From the IMG/VR virus record IMGVR_UViG_3300034629_000093: a DNA stretch of 27,502 bases. One strand, written 5' to 3'. Of this stretch, positions 3,001 through 24,864 are shown piece by piece. Every line of letters begins with the position of its first letter. Position 1 is the first letter of the stretch. The notes beneath the pieces are model-generated. The model saw only the letters and a program-made list of their open reading frames with translations. It was not told the DNA's origin and ran no database searches. A program made the translations under genes and the position numbers. This DNA comes from an uncultured virus (IMG/VR IMGVR_UViG_3300034629_000093). Its lineage: Duplodnaviria > Heunggongvirae > Uroviricota > Caudoviricetes.

Positions 3001-5015
3001 TCAAGAACAGGCTTGTTCTTAAACTCTGAGATAACCCAGCCGTCCTGTACTTTACTTTCTATCAACTCCTTTCTAGTAATGAGTGAGCCATCACGCTCTA
3101 CATTTTTACTAAGTACATTTATAACTCGTTGCTTATTCTTTGGGTCCAAAGTTTCTTCAAAACCGCTAAGATCCACCAAAGGCTCACTTTCATTAGTAGG
3201 AGAGCTATTCGATTGTCGAGCATCACGCTGTCTGTTCAGTTTTACTTCTTCAATAGCATCCTCTAAAGTATCATGTATAGAATCACCAAAACCCTGCCCA
3301 GTTTTTCGAGAACGATTAGGAACTAAAAACTGCTCCTTTCCATTAATTACTTGTGTATAAATTTGATAATCCCCATCCTCCGAAACAGGGATCTCCGCTC
3401 CCTCATCATTCCTTATTCCTTGTTCAATATTCGATATTCTTTCTCCCTCCTCAACTTGTTCATTGGCCGTTGGCTGTTCAATGTTGGCTGTTGAATTCTG
3501 TACTCCTTTATTCTCAACTCCTACATTCTCCGCCCTCCCCAACTCAGATTCAATCCTCGTAATATCATCAAGCGCAAGGTCAATATCCTTCACAACGGAT
3601 TCATTATCCAAAAACTGATCCTTAATACCCATCAGCCGTGAAAACTCCGCATTCAACTGCGCCTTCTGCGTCTCAACATCCGCCTCCGGATCAAACGAAA
3701 ACCCAATCTCCGGCACAACCTCGCCCTCAATATATCCACGCTTTGCATTTTGAATTCTTAATTCTTCATTCTTAATTCTTAATTCCTCACCCTTCTCATC
3801 CAAAAAATCCTGAATCTTTTGCAACTCCGCTTCCTGCTCCGGGGATAGTTGCAAATCAGAATTAGCCCGCATATTAGCAACTCCCAAACCCAGCGCATTC
3901 AAAGTCAAACCAACAGCAAACCCGGTAGTCCCGCCCTCAACCAAGCCCTCATACAAGCTCTTAGTCTCATCATACGTCTGGCCGGCAACAATATTACTAG
4001 GTAGCTGCTGAAGAATAGTCTCCTGAAAAGCCTCCTCAACACCACCCGCAAGTGCTTCCGCACCCATCTTCGCATACTTATTAGTCAGTTTTCGGCTCAA
4101 TATCCCTGTAAACTTACCGCCGCTAACCTTATCCAGTCTACGCATCATTTTACCCAAAGGTATAGCCTCCGTAGCACCCAAAGGTAAATTCAGAAGAAAG
4201 GCATTAAAAGCCTCATCATCCGAAGCGCCAGCGTCCTTAGCATTAACAAACTCATTAGCCGCAATAGTGCTACTACCAAAAATAGTACTACTCGCTATTG
4301 CCGGAACTTTAACAGCCTTACTTGCAACACCACCAACGCCAAAACTAGCCGCGCTTCCAAGTCCTTCCGGGAACTTTCGTGCCAAAAACTCATCCTGGTA
4401 CTTCTTATTCTGTGGAAACAGCACATCAATATCTTTACTCAGATCCTCCGCAAATCTATACACCGGAGAATTCTCCACAGCCATCTCATCCGTCAATCCA
4501 AGTGCATTACTAACCTTAGTACCGCCAACCGCAAAACTACGAAGAATATCCACGCTCAACGGGCGTACAAAACCCTCACTAAAACGATTGGCCGCCTCCA
4601 TAACCCGTCCCTGATTACTCTCACCTCCGGCAGCCTTCAAAGCATCCAAACCCTTACTAAACTTCCCGGCAATACTCATATCACCATCCTTCCCCTCCGC
4701 GGGCGGGGACAAAGGGGAGGGGGCTCCTGAATTCTGAACTTCTAAACTTCTATCTCCTAAACTTCTATCTCCTACATTCTCACCGCCACCATCCCCAAAC
4801 AACCCACTAAACCTCTCAAAATCAGGCAAACCCTTAACAGCACCATTATCAGCAAGTCTATCATAAAAAGCCCGCCGTTTTGCAGAATCAGCCATAGCAG
4901 ACTCAAACACATCAAAGCTATCCGGTAAACCCTTAACAGTACCGGCAGAATACAGTCGATCATAAAGCTTCTTAGAACGCTTAACAGTAGGGGTACTATT
5001 TGGATTATTAATCAT
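1..5015 (-). CDS. Giant polyvalent / DNA-ejection (internal virion) protein, 3' end outside window, >=1671 aa; contains a beta-clamp-like domain (1302-1799) and a HExxH metallopeptidase (~170-780)
   Basis: Manual translation from ATG at 5015 (MINNPNSTPTVKRSKKLYDRL...) is stop-free to the window edge (...DLNLALIEERE). Gly/Ala-rich helical N-region with GGVEEAFQE; motifs DDLRPALQGV, VATDGYKM, KFPNWKAVVP, VVMP; VLAHEIGHLID at 657-671. Follows the nozzle and two small ejection-type genes. Confidence 0.88.
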   Translation of the reverse strand, partial: MINNPNSTPTVKRSKKLYDRLYSAGTVKGLPDSFDVFESAMADSAKRRAFYDRLADNGAVKGLPDFERFSGLFGDGGGENVGDRSLGDRSLEVQNSGAPSPLSPPAEGKDGDMSIAGKFSKGLDALKAAGGESNQGRVMEAANRFSEGFVRPLSVDILRSFAVGGTKVSNALGLTDEMAVENSPVYRFAEDLSKDIDVLFPQNKKYQDEFLARKFPEGLGSAASFGVGGVASKAVKVPAIASSTIFGSSTIAANEFVNAKDAGASDDEAFNAFLLNLPLGATEAIPLGKMMRRLDKVSGGKFTGILSRKLTNKYAKMGAEALAGGVEEAFQETILQQLPSNIVAGQTYDETKSLYEGLVEGGTTGFAVGLTLNALGLGVANMRANSDLQLSPEQEAELQKIQDFLDEKGEELRIKNEELRIQNAKRGYIEGEVVPEIGFSFDPEADVETQKAQLNAEFSRLMGIKDQFLDNESVVKDIDLALDDITRIESELGRAENVGVENKGVQNSTANIEQPTANEQVEEGERISNIEQGIRNDEGAEIPVSEDGDYQIYTQVINGKEQFLVPNRSRKTGQGFGDSIHDTLEDAIEEVKLNRQRDARQSNSSPTNESEPLVDLSGFEETLDPKNKQRVINVLSKNVERDGSLITRKELIESKVQDGWVISEFKNKPVLEDPETNSFLDTSDLTKTGIDYAEYLIDKNASSEKGSDKVEEGSGSESGTVAPETKGVWDDQKLLNTYKKKYSIEPTAGALDFLKKRTKVVDSDINIENVFRVASNIAKEYPSNKPLPISVFAEAIEYEVMSNKLGLSDWYVKNQLDGKPTSQADRMKELGALDDFDRNFYEKTNELVSKINTSLSKKENPDVLKKVVGYEYDELYKQYAPTLEKSTKKKVGFASLRALEEVYNNLEDQGNKASKSTARKGIEYNFPDVIKVKKPTFVSKSNGFLLKFSNGLEVSATKYKDGSFDLIVGKETTDAGGIEGFNQLSDTIVAKDKRELNSKLTNIYEKYLKSTKSEEVNQKTIPEFLAPYSKSIDKIPLVKDKIDLDITDEIEFTPPLTSKIPALKKWEKDNPISIVVSKDDLRPALQGVYYDTDEGVKVATDGYKMVVTPDSRIKKSKVVNPKTGDMINEKFPNWKAVVPDSDTYIFTADLSNDVIEQIYANERFNRFFKNYKQKDNLFHKITTEPGMEVYLAAENLGRAVRSLKELGSKNLEIRLDAPKKGVIILDKDDNRRFAVVMPASKPNASIYTPLLTNVKMNGASIDSKISQLENFENDWSWNFDKKNLTDAQEKNDEWNIKYYSDKLKNREAEINKEIEELKNFRDNNVPVKKQASPKRSGFADGTTEGFGGEFEGGSNPLNVDRKLAEAKQIEVVDEYGRQREVTLGELENITGLELPELVTFTRELTGSAPSISTRFTSTRGVFYPVGDGKIALKASIFKDTKLASQVLAHEIGHLIDYLPEQTMSRGNILGRLLTLRKYLKTTAEGSASRGEALSTKDRAKLRRMAEKAVIDESGITLQEYINDKDLKASLSDGIKERYQEYVKREIENRGLLDNKALFDELYAHSKAWRPFEEAEVSADFLMYRRSSAELYADALSALLVSPGTLQKNAPTFYAEFFEQLDNKPEVKTQFAELQALLTGGRERLLRLRNETINQSFYSSEDLNLALIEERE
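4688..4782 (+). repeat. GC-rich hairpin element type A plus 7-mer tail, in frame within the giant gene
   Basis: CCTTCCCCTCCGCGGGCGGGGACAAAGGGGAGGGGG followed by CTGAATT/CTAAACTT/CTATCTC/CTACATT units; encodes ENVGDRSLGDRSLEVQNSGAPSPLSPPAEGK. Confidence 0.9.
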
Positions 5016-5019
5016 CTTA

Positions 5020-5164
5020 TTTCTTAAATCTTACGTCTTATGTCTCAATACTCATTTAAAAACTCGGTTCCTTCCCTCCACGGGAGGGCTTAAAGGGGAG
5101 GGGCATTCTAAACTCCTACCTTCTACATTCTTACTACTAACTACTACCTTCTAACTACTAAAAC
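5020..5164 (+). repeat. Intergenic 7-mer array with type A hairpin (5070-5103)
   Basis: CTACCTT, CTACATT and CTAACTA units flanking CCTTCCCTCCACGGGAGGGCTTAAAGGGGAGGGG. Confidence 0.85.
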
Positions 5165-6130
5165 CTACTCCTCAAAAATATCACCAACATCTACTTGCCC
5201 CGCCCCCGGATCACTCACATTTCCGATTCTAATAATCATATCGGCCTTATCTCTATTCAATTTCTTATAATAATTCTGCGTTTCATTGATATATTCATCC
5301 AAAGTATAAGAGCCGCCGTTCGGTTTCTCAGGGGCATTATTTTCCCATTGGCTACGTAAAGCCACATTACTTTTTAGATCATACAAGTAATCCAGCTTCT
5401 TCTCTACAAGTGGAATTTCCGCATTAGCCGATTGCACATAATCCCGCATCAACTGTACACTCGGCCCACCACCACCCGAAGGTGATTCATTCCTTAATTC
5501 CTGTAACTTACGTTGGTTCTCCCCTCGTAAATTCTCCAGTTTTATATCCGCATCATTATTCCACTTCGCAATATTCTCACGGCTCGTTCTGTCCTCATTA
5601 TATCTGTCCGCCGTTGCTGTTCTATCCGCCGCATCATTCGCCAGATCAGCATCCTTCTTAAGTAGATCAGGGTAATGCTCCTCATAAAAAGCTTGTTTCT
5701 TAGCAGCATTCGTATCCGCCGTAATCTTCTTATCAGCCAATACATTTCTTCTGTCACTATATCCGCCTCTTCGTTTTTCCCGTACTTTATTTACAATACC
5801 TGTGATCGCATTTCTCACGCTGGTCGCTGCGCCTCGGGTATCCAAAGAATAAGGGTTCCCCGCAATCCGGGCACTACCCAAGCTATAAGGAGCTGCATCT
5901 TCGATTGGTGCCAATCGGTTATCCCTGTTTAAATAACCGCTCAATTCCTCCATTTCAGCGTCATTCAGGTTATTAACCGGAAATCGTTCATCCACAAAAT
6001 TAAGAAGTTGATCACTCAACTGCGGGATAGGGTCAGGATCCGGCTCCATCTGTTCAGCCACAAGCTGTTGCCGCAACCCCGGAACCGAGTTAATCAGCTC
6101 ATCAATATTTTCACTCGTAATTAAACTCAT
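5165..6130 (-). CDS. Hypothetical helical protein, probable internal virion/ejection protein (321 aa)
   Basis: Long ORF, charged coiled-coil character, positioned between the nozzle and giant protein as for podovirus ejection proteins; function from position only. Confidence 0.6.
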   Translation of the reverse strand: MSLITSENIDELINSVPGLRQQLVAEQMEPDPDPIPQLSDQLLNFVDERFPVNNLNDAEMEELSGYLNRDNRLAPIEDAAPYSLGSARIAGNPYSLDTRGAATSVRNAITGIVNKVREKRRGGYSDRRNVLADKKITADTNAAKKQAFYEEHYPDLLKKDADLANDAADRTATADRYNEDRTSRENIAKWNNDADIKLENLRGENQRKLQELRNESPSGGGGPSVQLMRDYVQSANAEIPLVEKKLDYLYDLKSNVALRSQWENNAPEKPNGGSYTLDEYINETQNYYKKLNRDKADMIIRIGNVSDPGAGQVDVGDIFEE

Positions 6131-6135
6131 AATTA

Positions 6136-6334
6136 TAACTCCTAAATTCTAAACTCCCAACTACTAAATACTAAATACTAAATACTACCTTCTAACTTCT
6201 AACTTCTAACTCCTACATTCTCAACTCCTACATTCTAACTACTAACTACTAACTCCTACATTCTCAACTCCTACATTCTAACTACTAACTACTAACTCCT
6301 ACATTCTCAACTCCTACATTCTAACTACTAACAC
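6136..6334 (+). repeat. Intergenic 7-mer array with 43-bp higher-order repeat
   Basis: CTAAATA, CTAACTT, CTACATT, CTAACTA units; exact 43-bp unit starting at 6208, 6251 and 6294 (third copy slightly truncated). Confidence 0.95.
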
Positions 6335-6928
6335 CTATCCCGCCGCAGCCCCCGCACCACCAGTTGCCGCCGTTGTTGCTGCTTTTATACCCGCAGTTAT
6401 AAAATCCATCCCAAGTTGTTTATTAGCTTGTTTACGTTGCAAGTCACGGCTAATCTCATTCTGATAATTAGCGTTAGCAAAATTAAGCAAGTTACTATTA
6501 GCACCCAGCAACACATTCATCAAGCGGTCACCACGCGAACGGCTCTGTTCATTATCCGTTTTTGCGCGGTCCTCATAAAACCGTTCTATCTTACCAATAC
6601 CCTCATTCGCGTTTTGGTCCACACGATCAAAAGCAACCCCACGCGATCCCGTAACATCGCCACCCGTAGCAGCCGCCCCGCGGGACAGTGCGCTCTTAGT
6701 ATTATTCGCATTCGCGCGAATGTTGTCAGTATTACGAGTAATACTTTCACCATACAGATCCGTAGCAGAAAGTTGAGCACGGTTACGCGCATCATCCACG
6801 CCGCCCTTAAGGCTACCCATAATTTCGTTAAGGGCGGTCATAGCATTCTCACGCTCAGCGCCAAACTTCTTCTTCCGCGCCTTACTACGAGCCGCTTCCC
6901 GTCCAATACCTAAAAATCTAACTCCCAT
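6335..6928 (-). CDS. Probable small ejection/pilot protein (~197 aa)
   Basis: Ala/Gly/Asn/Arg-rich helical protein ending AGIKAATTAATGGAGAAAG, typical of podovirus DNA-transfer proteins; ATG at 6928 preferred over the track start at 6940. Confidence 0.65.
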   Translation of the reverse strand: MGVRFLGIGREAARSKARKKKFGAERENAMTALNEIMGSLKGGVDDARNRAQLSATDLYGESITRNTDNIRANANNTKSALSRGAAATGGDVTGSRGVAFDRVDQNANEGIGKIERFYEDRAKTDNEQSRSRGDRLMNVLLGANSNLLNFANANYQNEISRDLQRKQANKQLGMDFITAGIKAATTAATGGAGAAAG

Positions 6929-6940
6929 AACAATCACCAA

Positions 6941-7095
6941 TTATTAATCTTAAAACTAACACCTAACTACTAACTCCTACCTTCTAACTTCTAACTTCTA
7001 ACTCCTACATTCTACCTACTAACTCCTACCTTCTAACTCCTACATTCTACCTACTAACTCCTACATTCTACCTACTAACTCCTACCTTCTACCTA
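6941..7095 (+). repeat. Intergenic 7-mer array
   Basis: Tandem CTAACTC, CTACATT, CTACCTT, CTACCTA units. Confidence 0.95.
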
Positions 7096-9963
7096 CTAAA
7101 ACCTACTCGCCCCCTCATGCTCAATCGGTCTATAAAACAACCGGGCGGCACTAAGACGGTTACCCGTATTCGGCACAACCTTAAGTCTGATCCTTGGTTG
7201 CAGCCCACGGCGGTACAACTCCACAAACAAACCCTTCATACTCAAAGTAACCTCATCAGTAGTCATGTCGGCGGTAAAAGCCGCACTCCATGCGCCACCA
7301 TCATCAAAACGCGAATCCTGAAGATCTAGGTAAACAGTAACATCCACGCCCTCGCCAATAAGTTCTATAACCTCCATATACAATTGAACAGCCGTGGAGC
7401 TCAGGTAATCCGTAGTAAGCAATCCGGAAACCTCCGCGGTAGCATCACAAACATCATCATCATTATAAGTGCCGGCAATATCCAGTGTAGCAATACGGTG
7501 ATCAAAACCCCCATACAACTGGTTACCCAAATGCGAGATAGAATTAAAACTCCACATATCAGCAGCGTCATACTTCATAAGGTAGCTCAGTAAACCCTCC
7601 TCACGGCTGGTAGAAAGAGAATCACTCAATACCAGCACTTCGTTATTAGCCCCAAGCAACCACAGTTCATGTTCACGGGCATGGTAAGCAGCATCCTTAA
7701 AAGGAGAATCAAAAAACGAATATCTCGTACTATCAATAATACGCTCAACATCCTTACCCCGCCAAACATACAAACCATCATGGCTTTGAAACACCACGCG
7801 ATCTCCCCACAAAGCACAAGAGAAAGGAGAGAGTAAAGGCAAGCTCTCCGCAACCGGCTCCTCATTCACATCAAACGCTCCGGAACTCAAGTCAGCGCCC
7901 AAATAAACAATAACAGGCTCCTTATTAGTCAATAAATAGATAAGGTATCGTAATCGGTCGCCACGCTGGTTATCTATCATGTCAGCAAAAAGCCGCTCAA
8001 TACGCTCAACATTACTAATAGGCTTTTGGGAAGTAATATCTATCATCTGTCCGGGCGTCGCCAAAGCAACATAATTAGCAAGATCCAATACCTCTTCGTC
8101 CGTATTAGTATCCGGTAAAGCATCCAATGTATAATCAGCGGGGACCGTAGAAATAACAATTTCCTTCCCGAAAAACTCCGGGTCCTTCGGGGTAATTTTC
8201 TTAATCAGATAATAATCAGTACCCGAAGAAGTATCCTTTAAATACAGATACACAGCCAAAATCAAACTACTTAAAGCCGTTTGCTTATAAATATTTTCAG
8301 TTGATTTCAACTCCAGTTCATAATCAGTATCACTAAAAGTATTATCGCTGTACTCATACACAATACTTAAATGCTTATCCGCGTCTACGGTGCCCGAAGT
8401 TTCAATTCTGTAATTTACGTTAGGATCAGGGACAGGTTTATTCAGTTCATAACCACCAAACAAAATACTTCCCTTCACGCCACTAACATGATGGGGTTTA
8501 ATACTACTAGCCGGTAATATAGTAGGTCGTCCGGCAGTATGTGGTACAAAAGCAGAAATATGATCGATCAGTTCCTCATCAGGGGTATAATCATCAATAG
8601 TAAAATCCGTAACAGAAAAATCCCGAGCAAAATAAAAACTACCGTTAGGGTAATCAGGGCGGGTGCCATAACAATCATTACTTTTCAATTGCCATCGGGT
8701 ACTAAATAAATAACCCTTAACAGCATTATCCGGCACAAGGTTATTAGGTGCAGTATTGTATATATGCCGTAGCTGAACGCCCTTTCTATACGTTCTTATA
8801 TCTTGAATTGGATCAACACCAACATCTTCAAAAATACTGGAAGCAGGGGTGCTGATTTCAATAGGTACACTAGGATGTGTAAAACTGCCATCGTTAAGCT
8901 CATAAACCACACAATAAGCACGGTATAAGGTTGGTTCGTTAAAATCAGAATTCACGGTAATATCTGCCGTTCCAACCGAATACTTACCGCTGCTCTCAAG
9001 AAAAGCATTTATATCAACACCAGAAGGCACTACACTATAATAATATTCAATATTCACGTCGCTGCTCATGGGTGGCCATGGGCTTTGAAACTTTAATTTA
9101 CCATCCGTATCTAAGGTGGTAATTTTTGCGATCTGCGGTTGAAAATTAATCACTCCATTCACCAATGGGGTCAATGGGGAAGGGGTTGACAAAACAGGAT
9201 CGTCACCGGTGCCATCTATAGTATAAGGGAGTTCACTCTCTAAGATTAATATCTGATCATTTTTATACTCAACACCGCCAATAGTTAAATACTTCTGTCC
9301 TCCATACTCATATTTATAGATCCCTTTCGCTAACGTGTCAGAGCTTGCAAAAATAAAAGTACCCCAACTAAAATCCGATAAATACACCAGTACACTTTTA
9401 TTCTCTCCAAAACCCCAAATATTCTTATCCGTAAAATCATTCTCCGTAATAAAGTCCACATCATAAAGGGGTTTAGCGGAAGCACTATACCACTCAAAAA
9501 TATCCTTCGTCTTCAGGTCAATATACCAGGCTTGCCCGGCACCGGTATCAAACAAATACAAAAACCGTCCAATAACCACATGCTGCAACTTAGTATCATT
9601 CTTAAAAGCAACATCAACACCATAAGTAGTGGTAGTCAGGGTCGTTAAATTATCTAAATACAAGCGGGTATCAGTATGGCGGATCATGTAATTATAAGTA
9701 ACCCCCTCATAACTACTGCTAAAAGCCGCTAATGTAATAATATCACCCTGCGCCTCAGATCCAAGAATTCCGGTAGTACCGCCACGTACTTGAATATCCT
9801 GTCGTATTCCATCACCCTTATAGCGTACATTCTCCAAATCCTTCCAAAGCCGAATTGTACGCTGGCCTTCAGGATTCGCATCCCCCAAACCAAACTCCAT
9901 AACCTTAGAAGGCCGTTCCGCAACAGCTCCAATCCTACCAGCTATGTCACCAATTCTACTCAC
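7096..9963 (-). CDS. Probable tail nozzle / packaged-DNA stabilization protein (P22 gp10/T7 gp12-like role), 955 aa
   Basis: Beta-rich; N-terminal DLENVR motif, propeller-like C-terminal blades (VVFQSHDGLYVWRG, AAYHAREHELWL); sits after capsid and adaptor. Confidence 0.7.
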   Translation of the reverse strand: MSRIGDIAGRIGAVAERPSKVMEFGLGDANPEGQRTIRLWKDLENVRYKGDGIRQDIQVRGGTTGILGSEAQGDIITLAAFSSSYEGVTYNYMIRHTDTRLYLDNLTTLTTTTYGVDVAFKNDTKLQHVVIGRFLYLFDTGAGQAWYIDLKTKDIFEWYSASAKPLYDVDFITENDFTDKNIWGFGENKSVLVYLSDFSWGTFIFASSDTLAKGIYKYEYGGQKYLTIGGVEYKNDQILILESELPYTIDGTGDDPVLSTPSPLTPLVNGVINFQPQIAKITTLDTDGKLKFQSPWPPMSSDVNIEYYYSVVPSGVDINAFLESSGKYSVGTADITVNSDFNEPTLYRAYCVVYELNDGSFTHPSVPIEISTPASSIFEDVGVDPIQDIRTYRKGVQLRHIYNTAPNNLVPDNAVKGYLFSTRWQLKSNDCYGTRPDYPNGSFYFARDFSVTDFTIDDYTPDEELIDHISAFVPHTAGRPTILPASSIKPHHVSGVKGSILFGGYELNKPVPDPNVNYRIETSGTVDADKHLSIVYEYSDNTFSDTDYELELKSTENIYKQTALSSLILAVYLYLKDTSSGTDYYLIKKITPKDPEFFGKEIVISTVPADYTLDALPDTNTDEEVLDLANYVALATPGQMIDITSQKPISNVERIERLFADMIDNQRGDRLRYLIYLLTNKEPVIVYLGADLSSGAFDVNEEPVAESLPLLSPFSCALWGDRVVFQSHDGLYVWRGKDVERIIDSTRYSFFDSPFKDAAYHAREHELWLLGANNEVLVLSDSLSTSREEGLLSYLMKYDAADMWSFNSISHLGNQLYGGFDHRIATLDIAGTYNDDDVCDATAEVSGLLTTDYLSSTAVQLYMEVIELIGEGVDVTVYLDLQDSRFDDGGAWSAAFTADMTTDEVTLSMKGLFVELYRRGLQPRIRLKVVPNTGNRLSAARLFYRPIEHEGASRF

Positions 9964-9967
9964 AAAT

Positions 9968-10060
9968 TTCTAACTCCTACATTCTACATTCTACCTTCTA
10001 CATTCTAACTCCTACATTCTAACTCCTACATTCTAACTCCTACCTTCTACCTTCTCACAT
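9968..10060 (+). repeat. Intergenic 7-mer array
   Basis: Tandem CTAACTC, CTACATT, CTACCTT units. Confidence 0.95.
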
Positions 10061-10864
10061 CTAATCCAAAACATTCCAAACCACTGCACCATTACCATTC
10101 TCCAATCCCTCCATACCATTCAGTAAATCCTGCGGGGAGGGCGGTTGAATTTTCGTAGGTAACAAATACGCCAGTGCAGTTTTCAGTAACAACTCCTCCA
10201 TAATCAGCGGGGTATCCAAAGTATGCTCAGCAAGCTCAGTAGTCTCAGCATCACTACGCTTACCCACGTTATACTCATTCACATCGATCACACCCGGAAC
10301 AGTACTAGCCTCAAAAACCAAAAAAGAATCCGAAGCCACAGCCTTACCCAAATGCAGAATAAAATTACTCGCATCAAACCAATAGGTTTCCTCCGCGGTT
10401 TGGGCGCTAAACCCTGTTTGAGTAGTTTCCTTATAACAATTCGGAGTTATATCCTCCGTTTTATTCTCTGTAAACAATGCGGTAGAATACACATATATCT
10501 TCCCGTTAATACCGGTCACATTATGCCAAGGCTCCTTATACAAAAAAGCCTCAATACCGGAAGGGTGCACACTCGCAAGTGTCGAAGCCAGTACAGAATC
10601 AACCGGTTCGGCAGCATAAACATCATGCAATCTTAAAGGTAATATCCGTAAACCGGCAGGCACAAAAATAGAAACCGTTTTCAGTTTTTTACGAAAAGAA
10701 GATAGATGCCTGTCAGCCTTATTAACAGCTCTCAATAAATGCTTATAAGCCTTTCGGCGTTGGTAAAGCGGGCCACTGATCTCATTTTCTTCAAACAAAA
10801 TCTCCAAACGATCCTCAAGCTCCTCAACCGCGTCCAGCAACATTATATCTAAAGAATAATCCAT
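10061..10864 (-). CDS. Putative head-tail adaptor/ring protein (267 aa)
   Basis: Helical N-terminus, beta middle and C-terminal P..MEELLLKTALAYL helix as in podovirus adaptors; lies between capsid and nozzle. Confidence 0.5.
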   Translation of the reverse strand: MDYSLDIMLLDAVEELEDRLEILFEENEISGPLYQRRKAYKHLLRAVNKADRHLSSFRKKLKTVSIFVPAGLRILPLRLHDVYAAEPVDSVLASTLASVHPSGIEAFLYKEPWHNVTGINGKIYVYSTALFTENKTEDITPNCYKETTQTGFSAQTAEETYWFDASNFILHLGKAVASDSFLVFEASTVPGVIDVNEYNVGKRSDAETTELAEHTLDTPLIMEELLLKTALAYLLPTKIQPPSPQDLLNGMEGLENGNGAVVWNVLD

Positions 10865-10894
10865 CTACAAAATCCTAAATCTTAATTCTCATGG

Positions 10895-10980
10895 CTAAAA
10901 CTAACTCCTACATTCTACCTTCTAACTTCTAACTTCTACCTTCTACATTCTACCTACTAACTACTAACTACTACCTCCTA
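10895..10980 (+). repeat. Intergenic 7-mer array
   Basis: Tandem CTAACTC, CTACATT, CTACCTT, CTAACTT, CTAACTA units. Confidence 0.93.
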
Positions 10981-11019
10981 AAAAAACAGGCCGGGCACAT
11001 TATAAGCGCCCAACCTGCT
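10980..11019 (-). terminator. Intrinsic terminator after major capsid gene
   Basis: Minus strand AGCAGGTTGGGCGC-TTATAAT-GTGCCCGGCCTGTT followed by a T run; 14-bp stem with G-U pairs that works only on the minus strand. Confidence 0.85.
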
Positions 11020-11045
11020 TAGAGGTAACCACAACCACGAGGTCA

Positions 11046-12620: not shown

Positions 12621-12644
12621 TTTCCTGTGTATTTAAAATTGTTA

Positions 12645-12768
12645 TTGAATTCTTGAGCATCCGGTAGGTCATACCATCGCCTATCGACATTGAATTCAGT
12701 CACAAGTGGGTCACACACAGGCAGGGTCACTGCCCTGTAACTGGTAAGCATCAAACGTCACTTTGATT
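12645..12768 (-). ncRNA. Candidate structured 5' leader RNA of the capsid gene with repeated UGACC-loop hairpins
   Basis: GGCAG-UGACC-CUGCC (12720-12734), GUG-UGACC-CAC (12706-12716), GGUA-UGACC-UACC (12663-12675), AUCAAA-GUGACG-UUUGAU (12750-12767); closing stem CAGUUACAG/UUGUGACUG. Confidence 0.65.
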
Positions 12769-12769
12769 A

Positions 12770-12804
12770 ATTGCAATTTGTATAATAAAATTACAAAATG
12801 CAAT
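12770..12804. promoter_or_regulatory. AT-rich inverted repeat, candidate promoter/operator for the capsid gene
   Basis: ATTGCAATTTGTA-N9-TACAAAATGCAAT (13-bp arms, 1 mismatch) between an upstream terminator and the structured leader. Confidence 0.5.
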
Positions 12805-12825
12805 ACTCACCCAAAAAAACATTCC

Positions 12826-13041
12826 CTCCTAAACTACTACCTTCTACCTCCTACATTCTAACCTTCTACCTCCTCAACTCCTACATTCTCACCTTCTACA
12901 TTCTACATTCTCACCCAATAAAAAAAAAGCCCCACATATAAATGCAAGGCTCATATCCTTTCCCCCTTCGGAGGGGGTGCCCGAAGGGCGGGGGAGGTCC
13001 TAACAGCTAAATACTAAATACTCTGTACTAAATACTAACTA
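12826..13041 (+). repeat. 7-mer arrays plus type B hairpin (12957-12997), surrounding a terminator
   Basis: CCTTTCCCCCTTCGGAGGGGGTGCCCGAAGGGCGGGGGAGG; CTACATT/CTACCTT units to the left and CTAAATA units to the right. Confidence 0.9.
12920..12951 (-). terminator. Intrinsic terminator after the 13042-13821 gene
   Basis: Minus strand AGCCTTGCAT-TTAT-ATGTGGGGCT followed by a T run. Confidence 0.8.
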
Positions 13042-13821
13042 CTAAAATCTAGTCGCAATCCCAAACTTATCAGTAAGCTCGGCACCAAGCGCTTCAGCGC
13101 CATCCTTACCCTTCGGTTTCTTCTCAACCTCAAAATCAGCAAGCACCGATTCCTCAGTATCCGGATCAATCAAGTCATAATAAGCACCACCACGCTTCCA
13201 CTTAAAAACCTTCTCATTATCCTTCCCCTCCGCGGGAGGGGACAAAGGGGAGGGTTCTTCCACCTTCTGAACTTCTGGCTCCTGAACTTCTGAATCCTCT
13301 TCACTCTGCACTTCGTCACTCTGCAACTCTGTACTCTGTTCCTCCTCAAGTTCATCATCCGGTATTCCTTGTTCAATATTCGATATTCCTTCCTCCTCCT
13401 GAACTCCTGAACTCCTACATTCTACATTCTCATCTTCTACATTCTCATCTTCTACATCCTCACCTTCTACATTCTCAACTCCTACATTCTCCTCTTCTCC
13501 GCCATAAACCTTCGCTCTTCCGCTCTCGCTCAAAGCCAGGTTCGTAAGCTTCTCGGCAGGGTTCGCGTCCTCATCCACAAACTCCACATCCTCCGGTTCC
13601 AAACGCGGGCAGCTCTTAATCGAGCCATGCGTTCTAAAAACCTCCACATGCACATAACGCGTTTCCACTTCGCCCGCCCGTCCGGGGATAGGGGTGGTGA
13701 AAGTTTTCAATCCCGTTTCAGGATCAACAACAGGGTTCACCGGCGTAATGCCATTCTTAAGTAAACGGCCAAGGCCGTCAATTAAAATATTCTTATTTCC
13801 GTCAACTTGTTCGTAATTCAT
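13042..13821 (-). CDS. Hypothetical protein (259 aa) with a repeat-derived acidic linker
   Basis: ORF with globular-looking N- and C-terminal parts separated by ~90 aa encoded by the repeat families (13221-13495). Confidence 0.75.
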   Translation of the reverse strand: MNYEQVDGNKNILIDGLGRLLKNGITPVNPVVDPETGLKTFTTPIPGRAGEVETRYVHVEVFRTHGSIKSCPRLEPEDVEFVDEDANPAEKLTNLALSESGRAKVYGGEEENVGVENVEGEDVEDENVEDENVECRSSGVQEEEGISNIEQGIPDDELEEEQSTELQSDEVQSEEDSEVQEPEVQKVEEPSPLSPPAEGKDNEKVFKWKRGGAYYDLIDPDTEESVLADFEVEKKPKGKDGAEALGAELTDKFGIATRF

Positions 13822-13880
13822 AATTCAATGGTTTTATTCTGATTGTTGGTTAAAATTCTTACCCTCCCCGGTAGGGTTTT

Positions 13881-13985
13881 CCTATCCCCCTTCGGAGGGG
13901 GTGCCCATCGGGCGGGGGAGGTCTCCTAAACTCCTACATTCTACCTTCTACATTCTACCTTCTACATTCTAGCTACTAACTACTA
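13881..13985 (+). repeat. Type B hairpin (13881-13921) plus 7-mer array
   Basis: CCTATCCCCCTTCGGAGGGGGTGCCCATCGGGCGGGGGAGG then CTACATT/CTACCTT units. Confidence 0.9.
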
Positions 13986-15626
13986 ACTAATCTTCGAATC
14001 CGTCTCAGCGGCAAGCCTATCCAATTCACTGCCAAGTCGTTCATGTTTACTCATATTTTTAGACGTTTTAAGCTCCTCCTGTTCGCCATAATTAGCGGGT
14101 GGTGTTTTCTTCGCGTCCTGTTCATTAGCGCTCTCAACCTGTTTCTTACGCGCCTCAGCACGTAGCGAATCAATATGAGCGTCATACGCTTTCAAGGCCA
14201 TGTACGCATCATGTGTAGTATTCAATCCATTAAACTCATCCGTGCGTTGGTAAGCAAAATTAAAAAACTGCTGAAGGCCACGTTGGTCAGTAGTTTTAAA
14301 CAAAACATGATCAGGATACTCCTTACTCAATTCATTCAAAACATTAGTAACCCGCTTCACCTTCTGTTGCTCCGTTTCCTTCGGGTCCGCCGGTTTCACC
14401 TCCTTCAATTTCTCCGCAAAAGAATTAATCTTATCCACAATACCCAGCTTCTCGCTGAAGGTAGTATCCAGTTCAGATCGTTTCTCTTCGATTGCATCTT
14501 TGGCAGCTAGTAATTTAACGGCATAATCATCCTCATACTTAGCATCCTTATCATTCTTCAGATCCTCAAGAGCATCCACCAAAGGCTTCAATTCCTTAGC
14601 AATCAAATCATTCTTAGCGGAATTCAACATAGAAACCAATGCTTCCGTAGGGTTATCCGATTTCACATCCAGTTCAATATCACCCGTAATACCAAACTCA
14701 TTCAATACGGCATCCAGGTTCGTAGCCAATTCGTTCTGTTCCTGTTGCAAAGCAGCAATCCGTTCCTGGCTAACAGTAGTATCCTGTACTGCCTTATTCC
14801 GATTCTGCAAATGAGTGATCAGTTTATCACTCTCCTCAATACGGGTACGGAGAGCCTCATTATTCAAAGCCACAGCCGTTTCAATGCTACCCGCCTCCAA
14901 TAAACTATCCGGGTTTTGCGGATCCTTAAACCAATCAGGTAGATCTACAGGCCCAACACCCTTACCACTCTCATTCAGTTTCTCCGTCAAATCCTTAATA
15001 CGCTCCACTTTAGCAGCAAGGCCCAGTTCGGCAGTATCGCGATTCTTATACGTAGTACCCTGGCCGGTATCCTTACCATGCGTTTCCGGGTGAAAGAAAT
15101 ACCGCTCCCCATCCACCTCCACAAGATCCTCCTCAAAACCCTCAACCACTTCCTCCGAAGTAGTATCTGCCTTTTCATCCCCATCCACAGTAGGGGAGGT
15201 TTCCTCCTTAACTTCTGAACTCCTACCTTCTACATTCTCTGAAGCATCAGCTTCAGCTCCCCCAAACTTCTCATTCGTCTCATTAATCAAATCATCCATC
15301 TCCGATATCTTCCCATCCACAGTAGGGGATTGAGGGGAGGATTCTCCTAAACTCCTACCTTCTACATTCTCAGTACTACCTTCTGAATCCTTCCCATCAC
15401 CACCCGAACTCGCTCCGCCATCCCCATCCGGGGCAAACAAAATCCGAGGCACTCCAAACATCCCCATAAACGAAGCCGTCGCCATGCCGATATCAGCATC
15501 ATTACAACTCAGAAAAAATACGATTGCAAACACAAAAGCAATCACATACAACTGCCACCCAAGGCTAACAGTCGTTTTTGAGTTTTGTGATCTGGTAATT
15601 TTATCTACTTCAAATAAATACTTCAT
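13983..15626 (-). CDS. Probable capsid scaffolding protein (~547 aa) with hydrophobic N-terminal segment
   Basis: Acidic, coiled-coil-rich, between portal and capsid; ILFAPDGDGG motif of the type seen near scaffold N-termini. ATG at 15626 preferred because the extra 18 codons in the track come from a repeat element. Confidence 0.7.
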   Translation of the reverse strand: MKYLFEVDKITRSQNSKTTVSLGWQLYVIAFVFAIVFFLSCNDADIGMATASFMGMFGVPRILFAPDGDGGASSGGDGKDSEGSTENVEGRSLGESSPQSPTVDGKISEMDDLINETNEKFGGAEADASENVEGRSSEVKEETSPTVDGDEKADTTSEEVVEGFEEDLVEVDGERYFFHPETHGKDTGQGTTYKNRDTAELGLAAKVERIKDLTEKLNESGKGVGPVDLPDWFKDPQNPDSLLEAGSIETAVALNNEALRTRIEESDKLITHLQNRNKAVQDTTVSQERIAALQQEQNELATNLDAVLNEFGITGDIELDVKSDNPTEALVSMLNSAKNDLIAKELKPLVDALEDLKNDKDAKYEDDYAVKLLAAKDAIEEKRSELDTTFSEKLGIVDKINSFAEKLKEVKPADPKETEQQKVKRVTNVLNELSKEYPDHVLFKTTDQRGLQQFFNFAYQRTDEFNGLNTTHDAYMALKAYDAHIDSLRAEARKKQVESANEQDAKKTPPANYGEQEELKTSKNMSKHERLGSELDRLAAETDSKIS

Positions 15627-15639
15627 AATAATAAATCCA

Positions 15640-15786
15640 CGTTGGTTAATTGGTTGTTGGTTAAAACCCTTCCCCTCCACAGGAGGGGATAAAGGGGAGG
15701 GTAACCCCTAATTACTGGTTGTTGGTTTTTGGTTTTTCTCACATCTTAAATCTAACTACTAACTACTACCTTCTAACTACTAAATT
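15640..15786 (+). repeat. Type A hairpin (15668-15701) flanked by TTGTTGG-type and CTAACTA-type 7-mers
   Basis: CCTTCCCCTCCACAGGAGGGGATAAAGGGGAGGG with GTTGGTT units on both sides. Confidence 0.88.
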
Positions 15787-16320
15787 CTACCCCACCAAAA
15801 CCCAATCCTCCGCAAGCATATCCGTTTGGGAAGCAAGCCATCCGGTAAGAACTTTTTTATCCGCCGTCCACATTCGGATAGAGCCATAAGCATCAAAAGT
15901 ATCCTTCCCAGTTTCCGTTTCAATCACTGTGCGCAAAGCGGGGTCATTTATTACCTTGGTAGGTATTCCATCATCAGCAGGAAGCAGGAATAAGAACATC
16001 CCTTTTCCATTCCATCCTTCCCGAGCAACACGCTTACCCATCTTCAACGCCTCAATCGCCTGCCCAAAAGTCAATCCGTTCACTTCACGGTAAGCCCTTT
16101 CAAAAACATCCTTAGGGCTCCAGCTAATGTAATGTTCGTGGGCGGGGTGCAACTGGTGGGAAGGGCTATCCAAATACTCCACTAAATATCCATCATCATT
16201 AGGGTTTTCGTCAGCCGGTATCGTCCATCCTCTATAATCATTGTATTCACCCCTTGTCATGGGAGTGGCTTTTATTTCTTTCGTACCTAAATAATTCTTC
16301 ATAATATTGGTTTCCTTCAT
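15787..16320 (-). CDS. DUF2829 (Tad2-like) domain protein fused to an N-terminal YxGTK...SWSPKxVFE domain (177 aa)
   Basis: C-terminal LTFGQAIEALKMGKRVAREGWNGKGMFL...GWLASQTDMLAEDW is the DUF2829 signature; start may be the second Met (MKNYLGTK). Confidence 0.85.
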   Translation of the reverse strand: MKETNIMKNYLGTKEIKATPMTRGEYNDYRGWTIPADENPNDDGYLVEYLDSPSHQLHPAHEHYISWSPKDVFERAYREVNGLTFGQAIEALKMGKRVAREGWNGKGMFLFLLPADDGIPTKVINDPALRTVIETETGKDTFDAYGSIRMWTADKKVLTGWLASQTDMLAEDWVLVG

Positions 16321-16400
16321 TGGTTGTTGGTTATTCCTAATTCAAATATTCCTAATTCCTACATCTTAAATCTCATATCTAAATACTAAAATCTAACTAC
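16321..16400 (+). repeat. Intergenic mixed 7-mer array
   Basis: TTGTTGG, CTAATTC, TAAATCT and CTAAATA units. Confidence 0.75.
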
Positions 16401-16407
16401 TCCATCA

Positions 16408-16668
16408 CTACCCAATCAGCTTATCTTGCCCAGGAATTTCTTTGAAGTTACTCTCAAAATACTCCTTCGCAACCAACCATTGATCGTTATGGTTATTTGG
16501 ATTCCGAGCAATCATATCCCCAATCTTAGGAGATCCGGTTTCTAAATCAGCTTGTGATATAGACACTCCTTCATTTAGTAATGCATCCCCATTATCTAAA
16601 ATTTCATTGTTCGTAACAGGTCGCATTTCTGCAATATTCGTTCTTTTATACTTTTTAAATTGACTCAT
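16408..16668 (-). CDS. Small conserved-looking phage protein (86 aa)
   Basis: Motif-rich FKKYKR..AEMRP...GSPKIGDMIARNPNNHNDQWLVAKEYFESNF; co-oriented and bounded by repeat arrays. Confidence 0.75.
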   Translation of the reverse strand: MSQFKKYKRTNIAEMRPVTNNEILDNGDALLNEGVSISQADLETGSPKIGDMIARNPNNHNDQWLVAKEYFESNFKEIPGQDKLIG

Positions 16669-16685
16669 TGGTCTATTCCTTATCT

Positions 16686-16778
16686 GATTGTTGGTTACTG
16701 GATATTGGTTGTTGGTTATTCCTAATTCACTCTGTACTAAATACTACCTTCTACATTCTAAACTCCTACCTCCTAAAT
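16686..16778 (+). repeat. Intergenic mixed 7-mer array
   Basis: TTGTTGG/TTACTGG/ATATTGG units then CTAAATA/CTACCTT/CTACATT. Confidence 0.8.
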
Positions 16779-16783
16779 CCGCC

Positions 16784-18946
16784 CTACGGGCGCAGAACCC
16801 CATCAAGCGCATTCGCATCGCCATTCATAAACTGCACCATAGCATTCATCATCGCCGCCGTCGCCTTATCCTGATCACTCTCCGCCTTCTGCTGTAAACG
16901 GAACGCATTCTGTTCCAGCTCCTTCAGCTTCAAGCCATACTCACGATCCTTCTCCTCCTGCAGCAATTGCAGATTAGCCCGCTCATTCTGCTGAGCCGCC
17001 TGCATCATCTGTTCATCAATAGCCTGCATTTGATCGATCCACTCACGGAACATACCGCCATACACCGTTTGGTCCATCATGCGGAGCATAACCACGCCCT
17101 TCGGCGATTGCGTATAAGGGAACAACGAAGCCATAGTTTCCTGAATCCAGAAACGCTGTTCCGTAGGGTTCACCGGTATGATCGAAGTCGTAGAAATTTG
17201 GGTATCAAACTGTAGGTTCTTCAAACCATTTTTCACAGCATAGGTATACAAACTGCGTTCCCGTGTAATCGGGTCCATTTGCTCATACTGCCCCAAAGGC
17301 TCATTAAAAGCAACTTGGCTATACTCCTTAGTAATAGGATCCTGCACAGTAACCTGAAACGGTTTATCCCCTATAAACGAAACCAAGTTACTATAAAACT
17401 TCTCGCCCAGCCATTTAACAGCAGCCTCCAGGTTACCCACAATAGGGCTCATCGTAGTCTCGTTGCCGTAATTCTGCAAAGCCTCTTGGCGTCCGCTATA
17501 CGCTTGGCGGTTACTCACCATTTCGCCCTGTCGGTCAACATGGTAGATCATATCCTGTTCCAGATTGTCATACATACTAGGGAACTGCCCAACCGGAGCC
17601 TCATAGATCAAGTTCGCCATCGGTAAATTCTTTAAGTTACTCGGCAAAGCCTTCGGGTCAATTTCAATAACCGTGCCCTCCTTCTTTGTTTCCCTAACCT
17701 GATCCTCCGTAAGCACCCCTTTATAAGTAAACTTCGTATTCTTAAACGTACTCTTGAAATACTTAAACTTGCCATTAAACGCCAAGTTAAACGCCCACTC
17801 CGGGCTATGCATATCCTTAAAAGCACCGATTCCATACGCATGCAATTTACTCGGTCGTCGGAACCACATTGTAAGCGGGCACATACCATGGTCATACTCA
17901 TCAATAGCAGCCTCCACAATACCGACATGTTCCAGCCTAACCACATGCACCCAAGCGCGGCGTTCAATAACCTGTTCACGCTCAGCCATCACGCCGCCAC
18001 CAACATCCACTTGGTATCGTTCCACATAACGGACAGGCATCGGTATCCAAGTATGTTTAATCGTCGTCATGTTATGATCATTTCTGATCTGATTCAAAGT
18101 AGGGTTACTCCGTAACTGTGTATCCGATATGCCCGGTTTAATTTTATCCTTAAACTTAGGATATCTCATCATAGCATCCGTAACACTAATACTCTTCATC
18201 CATGTGATAATAGTATGGCTGTCATGCTCAAAATCCATACTCTCCTCGCCCCGCGCTCGGCGGTCGCGGATCAATTCAAACGTCGGGATATACTCTATCT
18301 TTTGGCGGATCAACGTATGATCAAACCGTTCATACTCCTCCCAGGTAAGCGGTTGGTTTTGGCGGGCACGGTCACGCAAAAAACGGTGGTTTCTAACCTT
18401 AGGAGAACGCTCCTTACCAACAAACAAAATACCCGAACCAAAATCATGGCCGTCACTAATAAAATTCTTACGGTTGATCTCATAATTAAGATCATTCAAA
18501 ATACTATTCCGGCTCACGTTAAGCGCTTTAACCGTTTCAGCATCCTGTTCCGGATTCCGGGCAACCGCCTCAAAATTCAACGGCACTTTAAACAAATATC
18601 CCTTACTCTTTTCGGCGTTATTACGCGCCAAACCGATATACGCACGGCTGTCAGAACGCTTCACCTTCGTATCCGAATAATAATTTCTCCCGCTATCCGC
18701 AGTATTATAACCATCATTCTCGCGCATACTAATAGCCTCCAATGCCCGATCCTTATACATCCACAAGCTCTCCATCACGGCAAGGTTCTGGTTATCCTCC
18801 TCCATTAAAAACTGCTCAATCGTTTCAGCAGTAGCCTGCACGGTATTCTCATAATCCGGAACCATATAACGCACATCAATCCCACTCATGTCATACAACA
18901 TCCGCACCCAAAACCGAAGATCATTATGCACAAAACCCTTACTCAT
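16784..18946 (-). CDS. Portal protein, P22/N4-like, with C-terminal Gln-rich barrel helix (720 aa)
   Basis: Size, DGHDFGSGILFV, YDHGMCPLTMW, AYGIGAFKDMHSPEWAFN, YSGRQEAL and C-terminal coiled coil fit P22-type portals; location upstream of scaffold and capsid. Confidence 0.85.
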   Translation of the reverse strand: MSKGFVHNDLRFWVRMLYDMSGIDVRYMVPDYENTVQATAETIEQFLMEEDNQNLAVMESLWMYKDRALEAISMRENDGYNTADSGRNYYSDTKVKRSDSRAYIGLARNNAEKSKGYLFKVPLNFEAVARNPEQDAETVKALNVSRNSILNDLNYEINRKNFISDGHDFGSGILFVGKERSPKVRNHRFLRDRARQNQPLTWEEYERFDHTLIRQKIEYIPTFELIRDRRARGEESMDFEHDSHTIITWMKSISVTDAMMRYPKFKDKIKPGISDTQLRSNPTLNQIRNDHNMTTIKHTWIPMPVRYVERYQVDVGGGVMAEREQVIERRAWVHVVRLEHVGIVEAAIDEYDHGMCPLTMWFRRPSKLHAYGIGAFKDMHSPEWAFNLAFNGKFKYFKSTFKNTKFTYKGVLTEDQVRETKKEGTVIEIDPKALPSNLKNLPMANLIYEAPVGQFPSMYDNLEQDMIYHVDRQGEMVSNRQAYSGRQEALQNYGNETTMSPIVGNLEAAVKWLGEKFYSNLVSFIGDKPFQVTVQDPITKEYSQVAFNEPLGQYEQMDPITRERSLYTYAVKNGLKNLQFDTQISTTSIIPVNPTEQRFWIQETMASLFPYTQSPKGVVMLRMMDQTVYGGMFREWIDQMQAIDEQMMQAAQQNERANLQLLQEEKDREYGLKLKELEQNAFRLQQKAESDQDKATAAMMNAMVQFMNGDANALDGVLRP

Positions 18947-18948
18947 AA

Positions 18949-19734
18949 TTATGATATAATGTGTTCTATTGTTATTCCGTTATCTGAAAAATGGGTGATT
19001 AGATTCTCGCCTTCTTTCCATTCGGTCCCAGTAAGCGCTTCTCGAATTTTATCATCCACTTCTTTGCGTTCCTTCACCAAAGCCGCCCATTCCCTTTGTA
19101 AAGGGGAATTGGGCTCCGCCATTTTTTCTATAAAACCCTTACTTTCTCCGTAAATAATTTTCCTTAACTCTTCCTCTCTTTCAATGGCCTTTTTTTCAGC
19201 ATCTCTCACAACTAACCTACTCATAAACGAACCAATTTCCGGGTCTGGGGTTGTTAGCCTAAGATCACTAAACAAAGCCCATTCCTTTTCAGTAATATTT
19301 GCACTCTCTTCTATAAATATCTCGGCACCCTTCCCCTCCACAGGAGGGGACAAAGGGGAGGGTCCTCCTAAACTCATAACTCCTACATTCTCACCTTCTG
19401 CCTTCTCAACTCCTGAACTCCTACCTTCTACATTCTGTCCTTCATAAAACTCCTCACTCTCCTTCCACTCAGTAATATGTGGGTACCAAATCCCTGGGAA
19501 ATCACAATTATAGTATGGAAATACATTCAAATCGGAATCGTATTTATTACAAAACCACCCCATAAAACCGTTATAAGCAAAGATAACACGATCCTTTGGT
19601 ATATCTGATAATTCAGTATTCAACCTCAGTCGGTTCTCGGCCCTACCTTCTGAACTTCTAAACTCCTGAACTCCTGAATCCTCAGAACTAAAGATCCACC
19701 CAAAAAAATTCGCTATGTGCCTAAAAATCTTCAC
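18949..19734 (-). CDS. Hypothetical protein (261 aa) with two in-frame repeat insertions
   Basis: ORF abuts the portal start; contains SGVQEFRSSEG and ENVGVMSLGGPSPLSPPVEGKG repeat peptides. Confidence 0.7.
   Translation of the reverse strand: MKIFRHIANFFGWIFSSEDSGVQEFRSSEGRAENRLRLNTELSDIPKDRVIFAYNGFMGWFCNKYDSDLNVFPYYNCDFPGIWYPHITEWKESEEFYEGQNVEGRSSGVEKAEGENVGVMSLGGPSPLSPPVEGKGAEIFIEESANITEKEWALFSDLRLTTPDPEIGSFMSRLVVRDAEKKAIEREEELRKIIYGESKGFIEKMAEPNSPLQREWAALVKERKEVDDKIREALTGTEWKEGENLITHFSDNGITIEHIIS
19329..19436 (+). repeat. Type A hairpin plus 7/15-mer tail, in frame within the 18949-19734 gene
   Basis: CCTTCCCCTCCACAGGAGGGGACAAAGGGGAGGG followed by AACTCCTACATTCTC-type units. Confidence 0.9.
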
Positions 19735-19925
19735 TAATTCTACATTCTTAATTGAAACATTCTTAATTCTTAAATACTCAATACTACCATCTAACTACTA
19801 ACTACTACCTTCTAACTACTACCTTCTAACTACTACCTTCTAACTACTACCTTCTAACTACTAACTACTAACTACTAACTACTACATTCTAACTTCTAAC
19901 CTTCTACCTCCTCAACTCCTACCTT
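19735..19925 (+). repeat. Intergenic 7-mer array running into the 3' end of the adaptor gene
   Basis: (CTAACTA CTACCTT) 14-mer tandem copies then (CTAACTA)n; last codons EKVGVEEVEG-stop are repeat-like. Confidence 0.95.
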
Positions 19926-20576
19926 CTCACTACTATAAAGCTCCGCAATCAACCCACTAATCTGGCTCTTACCCGTATTCCCGGTCAGCACAGCCTCAAC
20001 ATGCATCATAGCCAAAGCCACCACTTCCTCCTCAAAAGGAGAGGGGAGAGGGAAATCCAAAGTCGAATACAGATCCGCACCCGCGCCCGTAGCCACCGGC
20101 TTCGTAGGCAAAGGGATATAATTCAGCTCCAGTTTAGAAGCGCCATGCAATAAAAAATTCTTAATCGAAAAATCCGTAGCCACCAACCGGTTACCATACT
20201 GATTCTTCTTAGCAATCATTCTAAAAAACGAACTCACGCTACTAAGTTCACGATCCGTAACAATAGTCTCATCATCCAGCAACAGATAAACAATACCCAT
20301 ATCCGGGCGAGAGCGGAACAAGTCAGCCGGCAACGCCGCTGAATAATGGGTGATATCAGAACCCGTTGCACCCGTAGGTTTAGCAACGAGAGTAAGAGAG
20401 CTCGTCTTATAAATAGAATCCAAAACCGAAGCCTTAGCATCCCGCGCAACCTTAATAGTAGCAGCGTAAATAAACTGAAGTTGCTCCGCCAGCTTCGTAG
20501 ACGAACCCGCATCCGGCCAAGATCGCTGTTCGCGAATGCGCTCAAATAAAAGGGTATGTATATCAGAATATTTCAT
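19896..20576 (-). CDS. Putative head-tail adaptor/ring protein (226 aa)
   Basis: N-terminal helices, YSAALPADL, LELNYIPLPTKP and DFPLPSPFEEEVVALA resemble podovirus adaptor/ring proteins. Confidence 0.6.
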   Translation of the reverse strand: MKYSDIHTLLFERIREQRSWPDAGSSTKLAEQLQFIYAATIKVARDAKASVLDSIYKTSSLTLVAKPTGATGSDITHYSAALPADLFRSRPDMGIVYLLLDDETIVTDRELSSVSSFFRMIAKKNQYGNRLVATDFSIKNFLLHGASKLELNYIPLPTKPVATGAGADLYSTLDFPLPSPFEEEVVALAMMHVEAVLTGNTGKSQISGLIAELYSSEKVGVEEVEG

Positions 20577-23464: not shown

Positions 23465-23466
23465 GA

Positions 23467-24737: not shown

Positions 24738-24864
24738 ACTCCTGAATTCTGAATCCTTCCCCTTCGGAGGGGGTGCCCAACGGGCGGGGGAGGCCTACTA
24801 ACTACTAACTACTAAATACTAAATACTAAATACTACCTTCTACATTCTCAACTCCTACCTTCTA
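24738..24864 (+). repeat. Type B hairpin (24755-24793) plus 7-mer array downstream of terL
   Basis: CCTTCCCCTTCGGAGGGGGTGCCCAACGGGCGGGGGAGG then CTAACTA, CTAAATA, CTACCTT, CTACATT units. Confidence 0.92.

Follow-up and report, generated by a model that had tools for sequence, protein, structure and literature searches.

Tandem arrays and hairpins lying in frame in the late genes of a Balneola-type prophage: probable passengers related to host cassettes

How do the same short DNA repeats come to lie in frame in the genes of several unrelated proteins, and are they kept for anything they do there? The question is raised by the IMG/VR record IMGVR_UViG_3300034629_000093, of which we analyzed one stretch of 27,502 nucleotides (nt), called the window below. 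The window forms the final 27.5 kb of a provirus record of 89.5 kb (G000) and represents the late operon of a marine Balneola-type prophage; a host response regulator encoded in G000 is 100% identical to those in Balneola records. Its repeats fall into two classes, short hairpins (A and B) and tandem arrays of 7- and 8-nt units, which lie both between the late genes and within them. We consider it probable that they are gene-less arms of two host cassettes, multiplied on one strand of the prophage and carried as near-neutral, in-frame passengers in variable linkers and loops. Overall, the repeats are real and mostly tolerated passengers, with a possible role in module exchange.

We compared the window with a sister prophage about 95% identical to G000 (L089, L091, and G217; L089 and G217 do not differ in the 1,804 nt where they overlap). 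The case ties two unexplained repeat classes to a setting in which turnover is visible between 95%-identical genomes.

Repeats within genes and between them

A sequence-only reading of this DNA had named peptides shared by several unrelated open reading frames (ORFs). All of them are present and translate from the minus strand within the ORFs given, except that the array at 4735-4780 encodes a variant rather than the exact 5-mer. The features within genes are as follows, with lengths of proteins in amino acids (aa).

1..5015, minus strand: giant late gene, the 5' two thirds of a frame of 2529 aa (polyvalent-protein family), extending past the window start
987..3401, minus strand: center of the giant gene, where the sister has unrelated modules instead
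3403..3456, minus strand: 54-nt block in frame in the giant gene; sister homology stops just past the block
3501..3530, minus strand: in-frame array of 15-nt period in the giant gene; the sister's is longer
3742..3795, minus strand: array of 7/21-nt period in frame in the giant gene
4688..4780, minus strand: hairpin A and array in frame near the N-terminus of the giant protein
13042..13821, minus strand: the 13042 gene, 259 aa, with a linker packed with repeat peptides
13221..13495, minus strand: hairpin A, shared block, and array of 15-nt units in frame in the 13042 linker
15166..15384, minus strand: two in-frame units of array plus hairpin within the putative scaffold gene, one of them partial
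19329..19436, minus strand: hairpin A and arrays in frame in the 18949 gene
19642..19685, minus strand: array of 8-nt period in frame in the 18949 gene; the sister gene diverges here into an 86-aa ORF

Hairpin A occurs in ten copies in this prophage, six genic and four intergenic. The copies behind the named peptides lie at 4688-4721, 13221-13254, and 19329-19362, with a degenerate one at 15308-15341, and array peptides are encoded at 3501-3530, 13410-13495, 15218-15239, 15351-15368, 19378-19434, and 19914-19928. Two genes just outside the window, for a CHAP lysin and a 274-aa protein, hold the same repeat unit in the same frame. The copies share a DNA origin, as had been proposed: third codon positions agree between genic and intergenic copies, and therefore conservation is at the DNA level. 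The block common to the giant gene (3403-3456) and the 13042 gene (13352-13405), repeat family D16, is 87% identical over 54 nt.

The reading frame leaves a clear mark on the genic copies. In the late arm, none of the 15 intragenic segments has a stop in the frame of its gene, and 10 of the 15 have stops in both other frames; the intergenic arrays longer than 40 nt are closed by stops in all three frames (17/17). The ratio of 7-nt to 8-nt steps is 26:22 in genic arrays versus 153:11 in intergenic ones (Fisher P = 2.5 × 10−9). The proposals that only stop-free phases survive in genes, and that coding copies use frame-preserving 7+8 combinations, were thus both borne out.

Between the genes, the same repeats form these features.

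5069..5162: hairpin A and heptamer array
6136..6332: heptamer array
6954..7108: heptamer array
9965..10056: heptamer array
10900..10982: heptamer array
12825..13047: arrays and hairpin B (12963-12997)
13887..13989: hairpin B and array
15668..15793: hairpin A and array
16319..16778: arrays and direct repeat around an 86-aa gene at 16408-16668
19737..19928: long array overlapping the last adaptor codons; 22 nt of it match the downstream arm of a host PF05635 gene (L148) exactly
24755..24877: hairpin B and array after the terminase gene

Every late-operon spacer longer than 20 nt contains an array (15/15), as counted with a repeat mask whose k-mer part was trained on 13 window arrays; an untrained periodicity scan recovers most of them. 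G000 includes a region that looks Mu-like in its gene layout and ORF sequences, host-type genes over about 7 kb, and a second prophage of 51.8 kb, which carries an integrase, DnaB, methylases, and SSB on the plus strand and the late genes on the minus strand. The untrained scan found 33 periodic segments in this second prophage (6.4 per 10 kb), three in the Mu-like region, and none in the host gap. In 1.40 Mb of Balneolaceae loci it found 17 (0.12 per 10 kb), so that array density in the prophage is about 50 times that of the sampled host loci, which were centered on one gene and are not whole genomes. All 33 prophage segments are C-rich on the plus strand, across early and late arms that face in opposite directions, and their orientation therefore follows the DNA and not transcription.

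Carrier proteins and turnover

The carriers of internal repeats are the polyvalent giant protein, an HNH_3-like protein (the 13042 product), the putative scaffold, a gene replaced in the sister, and the last adaptor residues. The sequence-only reading had placed the repeats in virion proteins; this did not hold for the capsid, portal, terminase, or tail-region genes, none of which has an internal repeat. Terminase, portal, and major capsid genes were recognized in the window by PHROG matches, and neither viral contigs nor 216 Balneolaceae genomes yielded relatives of capsid or portal. The adaptor-like protein resembles crAss ring proteins by features with a very high score. The scaffold label (13983-15626) comes from gene order and a weak feature score, and no homologues of this protein were found outside its own cluster. 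The 18949 gene (18949-19734, 261 aa), located between adaptor and portal, has only its first ~30 codons in common with the sister's 86-aa ORF.

The giant protein (P0035) has no Pfam match itself. It has 53 matches, among them proteins that carry LPD38, SNF2, methylase, RadC, and ParB domains, and because of these domains it is placed with the phage polyvalent proteins; like them it is large and multidomain, is encoded among the late genes, and varies in its enzymatic modules. Nearly all of its homologues keep an HExxH motif, and LPD38 was found on one of them (P0046). The hairpin peptide was present in 2 of 52 giant-protein sequences screened, those of the window and the sister, and missing from all 50 more distant homologues. 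The corresponding site is a hypervariable loop, which measures 26 to 27 residues in 17 of the 23 homologues compared and as many as 91 elsewhere; there are expansions relative to an outgroup of 51% identity (P0043). In a structure model, the site has a predicted local distance difference test (pLDDT) score below 50 between confident helices (mean 73.5) and is predicted to be disordered, in line with what the earlier reading had anticipated from homologue alignment.

The 13042 family (17 matches) combines an HNH_3-like N-domain, found in 8 of 18 members, with a variable acidic linker and a small C-domain; no solved structure matched it. All 15 more distant homologues have the acidic variable linker, and 13 of these 15 lack recognizable repeat peptides. 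Differing repeat-type peptides occur in the linkers of P0096 (70% identity) and P0097 (44%), and from their form in the protein sequence they are probably repeat-derived. As linkers exist in homologues without repeat peptides, the repeats colonize pre-existing tolerant regions, apparently more than once.

Turnover of the repeats is recent, as had been claimed, and gains and losses relative to the sister keep the reading frame. In comparison with the sister, the 13042 gene has one 15-nt unit that the sister is missing, the scaffold repeats show clustered substitutions, the sister's repeat stretch near residue 1780 of the giant protein is 23 residues longer, and the sister's CHAP lysin is without most of one array-plus-hairpin unit. 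Array length and unit vary freely between the two. Across 11 genes or gene parts, the ratio of nonsynonymous to synonymous changes was 35:12 in 300 repeat codons and 70:235 in 4,342 others, in one genome pair whose alignments are least reliable in the repeats. Judged from these sequences, repeat codons seem to change as if neutral.

Relatives in host cassettes and published repeats

The arrays resemble the inverted arms of host genes for a four-helix-bundle protein (PF05635, also named 23S rRNA intervening-sequence protein), and the hairpins resemble the flanks of host DUF559 (PF04480) nuclease genes. The sequence-only reading had missed this link, as well as the strict strand polarity. Inverted arms were detected at P ≤ 0.01 in 16 of 20 PF05635 genes and 4 of 11 DUF559 genes, several of these loci being orthologous to one another. 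Phage unit types occur among the host arms, and exact matches between phage repeats and host arms reach 22, 17, 17, 16, and 16 nt. The 22-nt match is to a PF05635 arm (host loci L144-L163), and one of 17 nt is to a DUF559 flank, akin in its C/G-rich hairpin. Among 11 array matches, six loci were inspected, and five of these map to the end of the same PF05635 ortholog. Relatives of hairpin A occur in 67 of 216 Balneolaceae genomes, with 1 to 17 copies each, and at 3 of the 20 such loci that were inspected the neighbor is a full DUF559 gene. With a crude hairpin pattern, 3 of 11 DUF559 loci scored; further cases were seen by eye only and are uncounted.

The phage differs from these cassettes in having single arms only, without the gene or inverted pairs. 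PF05635 had no match in G000 or G217, versus 11 to 12 in each of three host genomes, and PF04480 likewise had none in either, versus 4 to 7 in host genomes. Exact array patterns were found in one IMG/VR record only, the sister. A single exact match to the hairpin-A pattern lies between tail genes in an unrelated GC-rich phage record (L096, L098:3001-3020). At the host locus L117:1018-2010, a PF05635 cassette is followed by a DUF559 cassette in direct tandem; as speculation, interior loss at such a tandem would leave an array-then-hairpin unit like that of the phage.

These relationships can be arranged into a putative history. Arms of PF05635 cassettes (inverted 7/8-nt arrays) and DUF559 cassettes (C/G-rich hairpins) would have entered the phage lineage and spread there as direct copies through slippage and short-homology recombination with orientation kept, a route we propose because of the polarity and the unit-sized indels. 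Selection would have purged copies that closed a frame or broke a folded core, leaving others to drift, and the copies may incidentally provide portable homology where modules are exchanged, as a plausible by-product. A scan of 33 proteins of the early arm and the lysis genes gave no match to a reverse transcriptase, transposase, or annealing-recombinase family and so lends no support to a repeat writer encoded by the phage.

Several observations weigh against this account. The array pattern occurs in 11 of 216 host genomes, which is no more than its reversed control. Neither a full cassette nor an inverted arm pair was seen in this prophage, so that transfer may have gone either way. The neutral appearance of the repeat codons and the density contrast carry the limits of one genome pair and of gene-centered host loci, respectively. 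Filled spacers in 15 of 15 cases together with perfect polarity could reflect function instead. Finally, three frames are open in the full coding hairpins and 6 of 6 use the same one, which may indicate peptide selection.

Published systems offer partial parallels, which we draw from portions of the cited articles. Rickettsia palindromic elements (RPEs) are 105 to 146 bp long, have terminal inverted repeats, and lie in chromosomal genes (PMC2229807, summarizing Ogata 2000). In both systems, short repeats are intergenic and also in frame in unrelated proteins, apparently near-neutrally (PMC2229807), so repeats in frame in genes are already known. Here, however, they are 34- to 35-nt hairpins and 7/8-nt tandem arrays on one strand of a prophage, with no matching long inverted repeat; the phage repeats work like RPEs but are not RPEs. 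Heptamer direct repeats in Beggiatoaceae, Cyanobacteria, and Bacteroidetes are mostly intergenic and occasionally found in ORFs or over stop codons (PMC4679880). The phage repeats belong with them, sharing the 7-nt period, a mainly intergenic location, and stops in all frames of one orientation (PMC4679880), whereas the units here are mixed, and the in-frame copies have the orientation that carries stops but escape them through 7+8 combinations. The main text of PMC4679880 never uses the word "phage".

The TM-ECO triplex motif (BoxC) is, by description, similar in its pyrimidine tract, C/G hairpin, and raised variability near the motif (PMC4666352). It is always intergenic, without strand bias, and not phage-associated according to the part of PMC4666352 used here, in contrast to the coding, polar, and prophage-borne repeats of this phage. 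The boundary sequences of phage mosaicism resemble our case in having short direct repeats at gene gains and losses (PMC3029335), but the candidate boundaries in this phage, many of them intragenic, are degenerate arrays and hairpins that probably come from host cassettes. As for polyvalent proteins (PMC5512222), the likeness consists of a giant late gene, the LPD38, SNF2, methylase, RadC, and ParB domains of its homologues, and the sister's 2H and ParB modules; DNA repeats at module junctions are not mentioned in the portion of that article consulted. We found no report of PF05635 or DUF559 arms inside phage proteins in the open-access literature searched.

Possible module exchange and alternative explanations

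Rather than being passengers, the repeats might be kept as recombination joints, with same-strand copies letting related phages swap accessory genes and polyvalent modules, anti-defense domains among them, in frame. We regard this as unlikely. Some boundaries between the sisters do fall at repeats. The middle region found in the window, with its match to PHROG 6615/3007, gives way in the sister's giant gene (L089:18961-21048) to a 2H phosphoesterase (PF13563, with a weak Acb1 match), a ParB-like domain, and a third domain of no known kind, each bounded by repeat peptides. The 2H phosphoesterase is a predicted anti-defense enzyme. The 86-aa gene at 16408-16668 lies between exact direct repeats of ~25 nt, and the sister has one copy and no gene.

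Alignment of the sisters gave 14 gaps of at least 100 nt; after two array-length changes were dropped, 12 swaps with 24 ends remained. Of the 24 ends, 11 are at most 30 nt from a repeat (background 13.5% to 25%, P = 1 × 10−4 to 0.02), as are 6 of 9 intragenic ends in the late arm (background 9.2% to 20%, P = 4 × 10−5 to 3 × 10−3), with the 30-nt limit set after the data had been seen and the two array-only gaps removed before the count. The association is concentrated in the window (8/10) and reaches only 3 of 14 ends outside it. At the 987 end of the giant swap the repeat is present in the sister only, the 800-aa middle region of the window itself is free of repeats, and a divergence point at 20579, left out of the swap count, has none either. 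Moreover, alignments tend to stop in variable repeats.

A database protein, P0094, fuses the N-part of the 13042 protein to the 274-aa gene at hairpin A. The partner genes are 18 kb apart and share a 38-nt exact repeat (window 13218-13255 and G000 56934-56971), through which P0094 could be either a real deletion or a misassembly. It is known from one contig, possibly misjoined, and the fusion joint was absent from 4 of 4 sequencing runs.

If the junction association is true, it gives phage polyvalent proteins a concrete way to acquire and shed counter-defense modules, a point left unanswered in the part of PMC5512222 considered here. If it is false, the locus is a clear case of repeat DNA filling insertion-tolerant linkers, and also a warning that such repeats can yield chimeric predicted proteins in assemblies. 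A more ambitious version, to which we give only a modest chance, is that a temperate phage domesticated the arms of two selfish cassettes from its host as one-strand, frame-keeping joints, plugging anti-defense and other modules into an injected polyvalent protein and swapping accessory genes.

A second alternative is that arrays and hairpins are polar DNA or RNA signals for replication, packaging, transcription, or translation control, with the coding copies as tolerated spill-over. The filled spacers and strict polarity fit such a role, and a regulatory one has been suggested for bacterial heptamer repeats upstream of start codons, in the part of PMC4679880 used. We nevertheless think it quite improbable, given that orientation is independent of gene direction, that array length and unit differ freely between the sisters, and that there are several unrelated unit types. 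In addition, Rfam had no match for the repeats, and hairpin folding was weak, with z from +1.1 to −2.3 over 11 folds, not clearly better than shuffles.

The sequence-only reading itself held that the repeats generate new acidic linkers selected at the protein level in virion proteins. The single frame of the coding hairpins, the strongly acidic segment in the 13042 protein, and the expansions relative to P0043 are consistent with this. De novo generation is contradicted, however, by the linkers that homologues already have: the acidic one in the 15 distant relatives of the 13042 protein and the pre-existing loop of the giant protein, 26 to 91 residues in 23 homologues. Net charge is 0 to −3 in 13 of 15 repeat segments, near neutral, with two lower values of −5 and −13; amino-acid change is not suppressed, and the sister lost one unit in the lysin. 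We therefore consider this view very unlikely. Convergent low-complexity motifs or assembly artefacts are hardly credible even though contigs break at repeats, since stop-bearing intergenic copies exist, third codon positions agree between copies, single 8,629-nt contigs bridge the whole giant gene in 2 of 4 sequencing runs (both possibly of the source sample), and the repeat types recur in the independent sister.

Other features of the record are noted for completeness. A Tad2-like anti-Thoeris gene (15787-16320; PF11195, E = 1.6 × 10−23) is flanked by arrays in the head operon and kept in the sister. A gene resembling serine resolvases and invertases (PF00239) at 26786-27502 lies upstream of the terminase gene in the same orientation as the late genes. 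The region of a BNR-repeat, tail-fiber-like gene (20573-24240) holds other genes in L089, and its short gene junctions are without arrays. In the Mu-like region, about ten perfect heptamer copies (L004:13171-13258; G000 24170-24257) are oriented like the arrays of the second prophage. Also in that region, an inverted pair of 7-nt arrays surrounds a 77-aa ORF with four cysteines (L004:1679-1974; G000 12678-12973), which is a cassette layout with a cargo other than PF05635.

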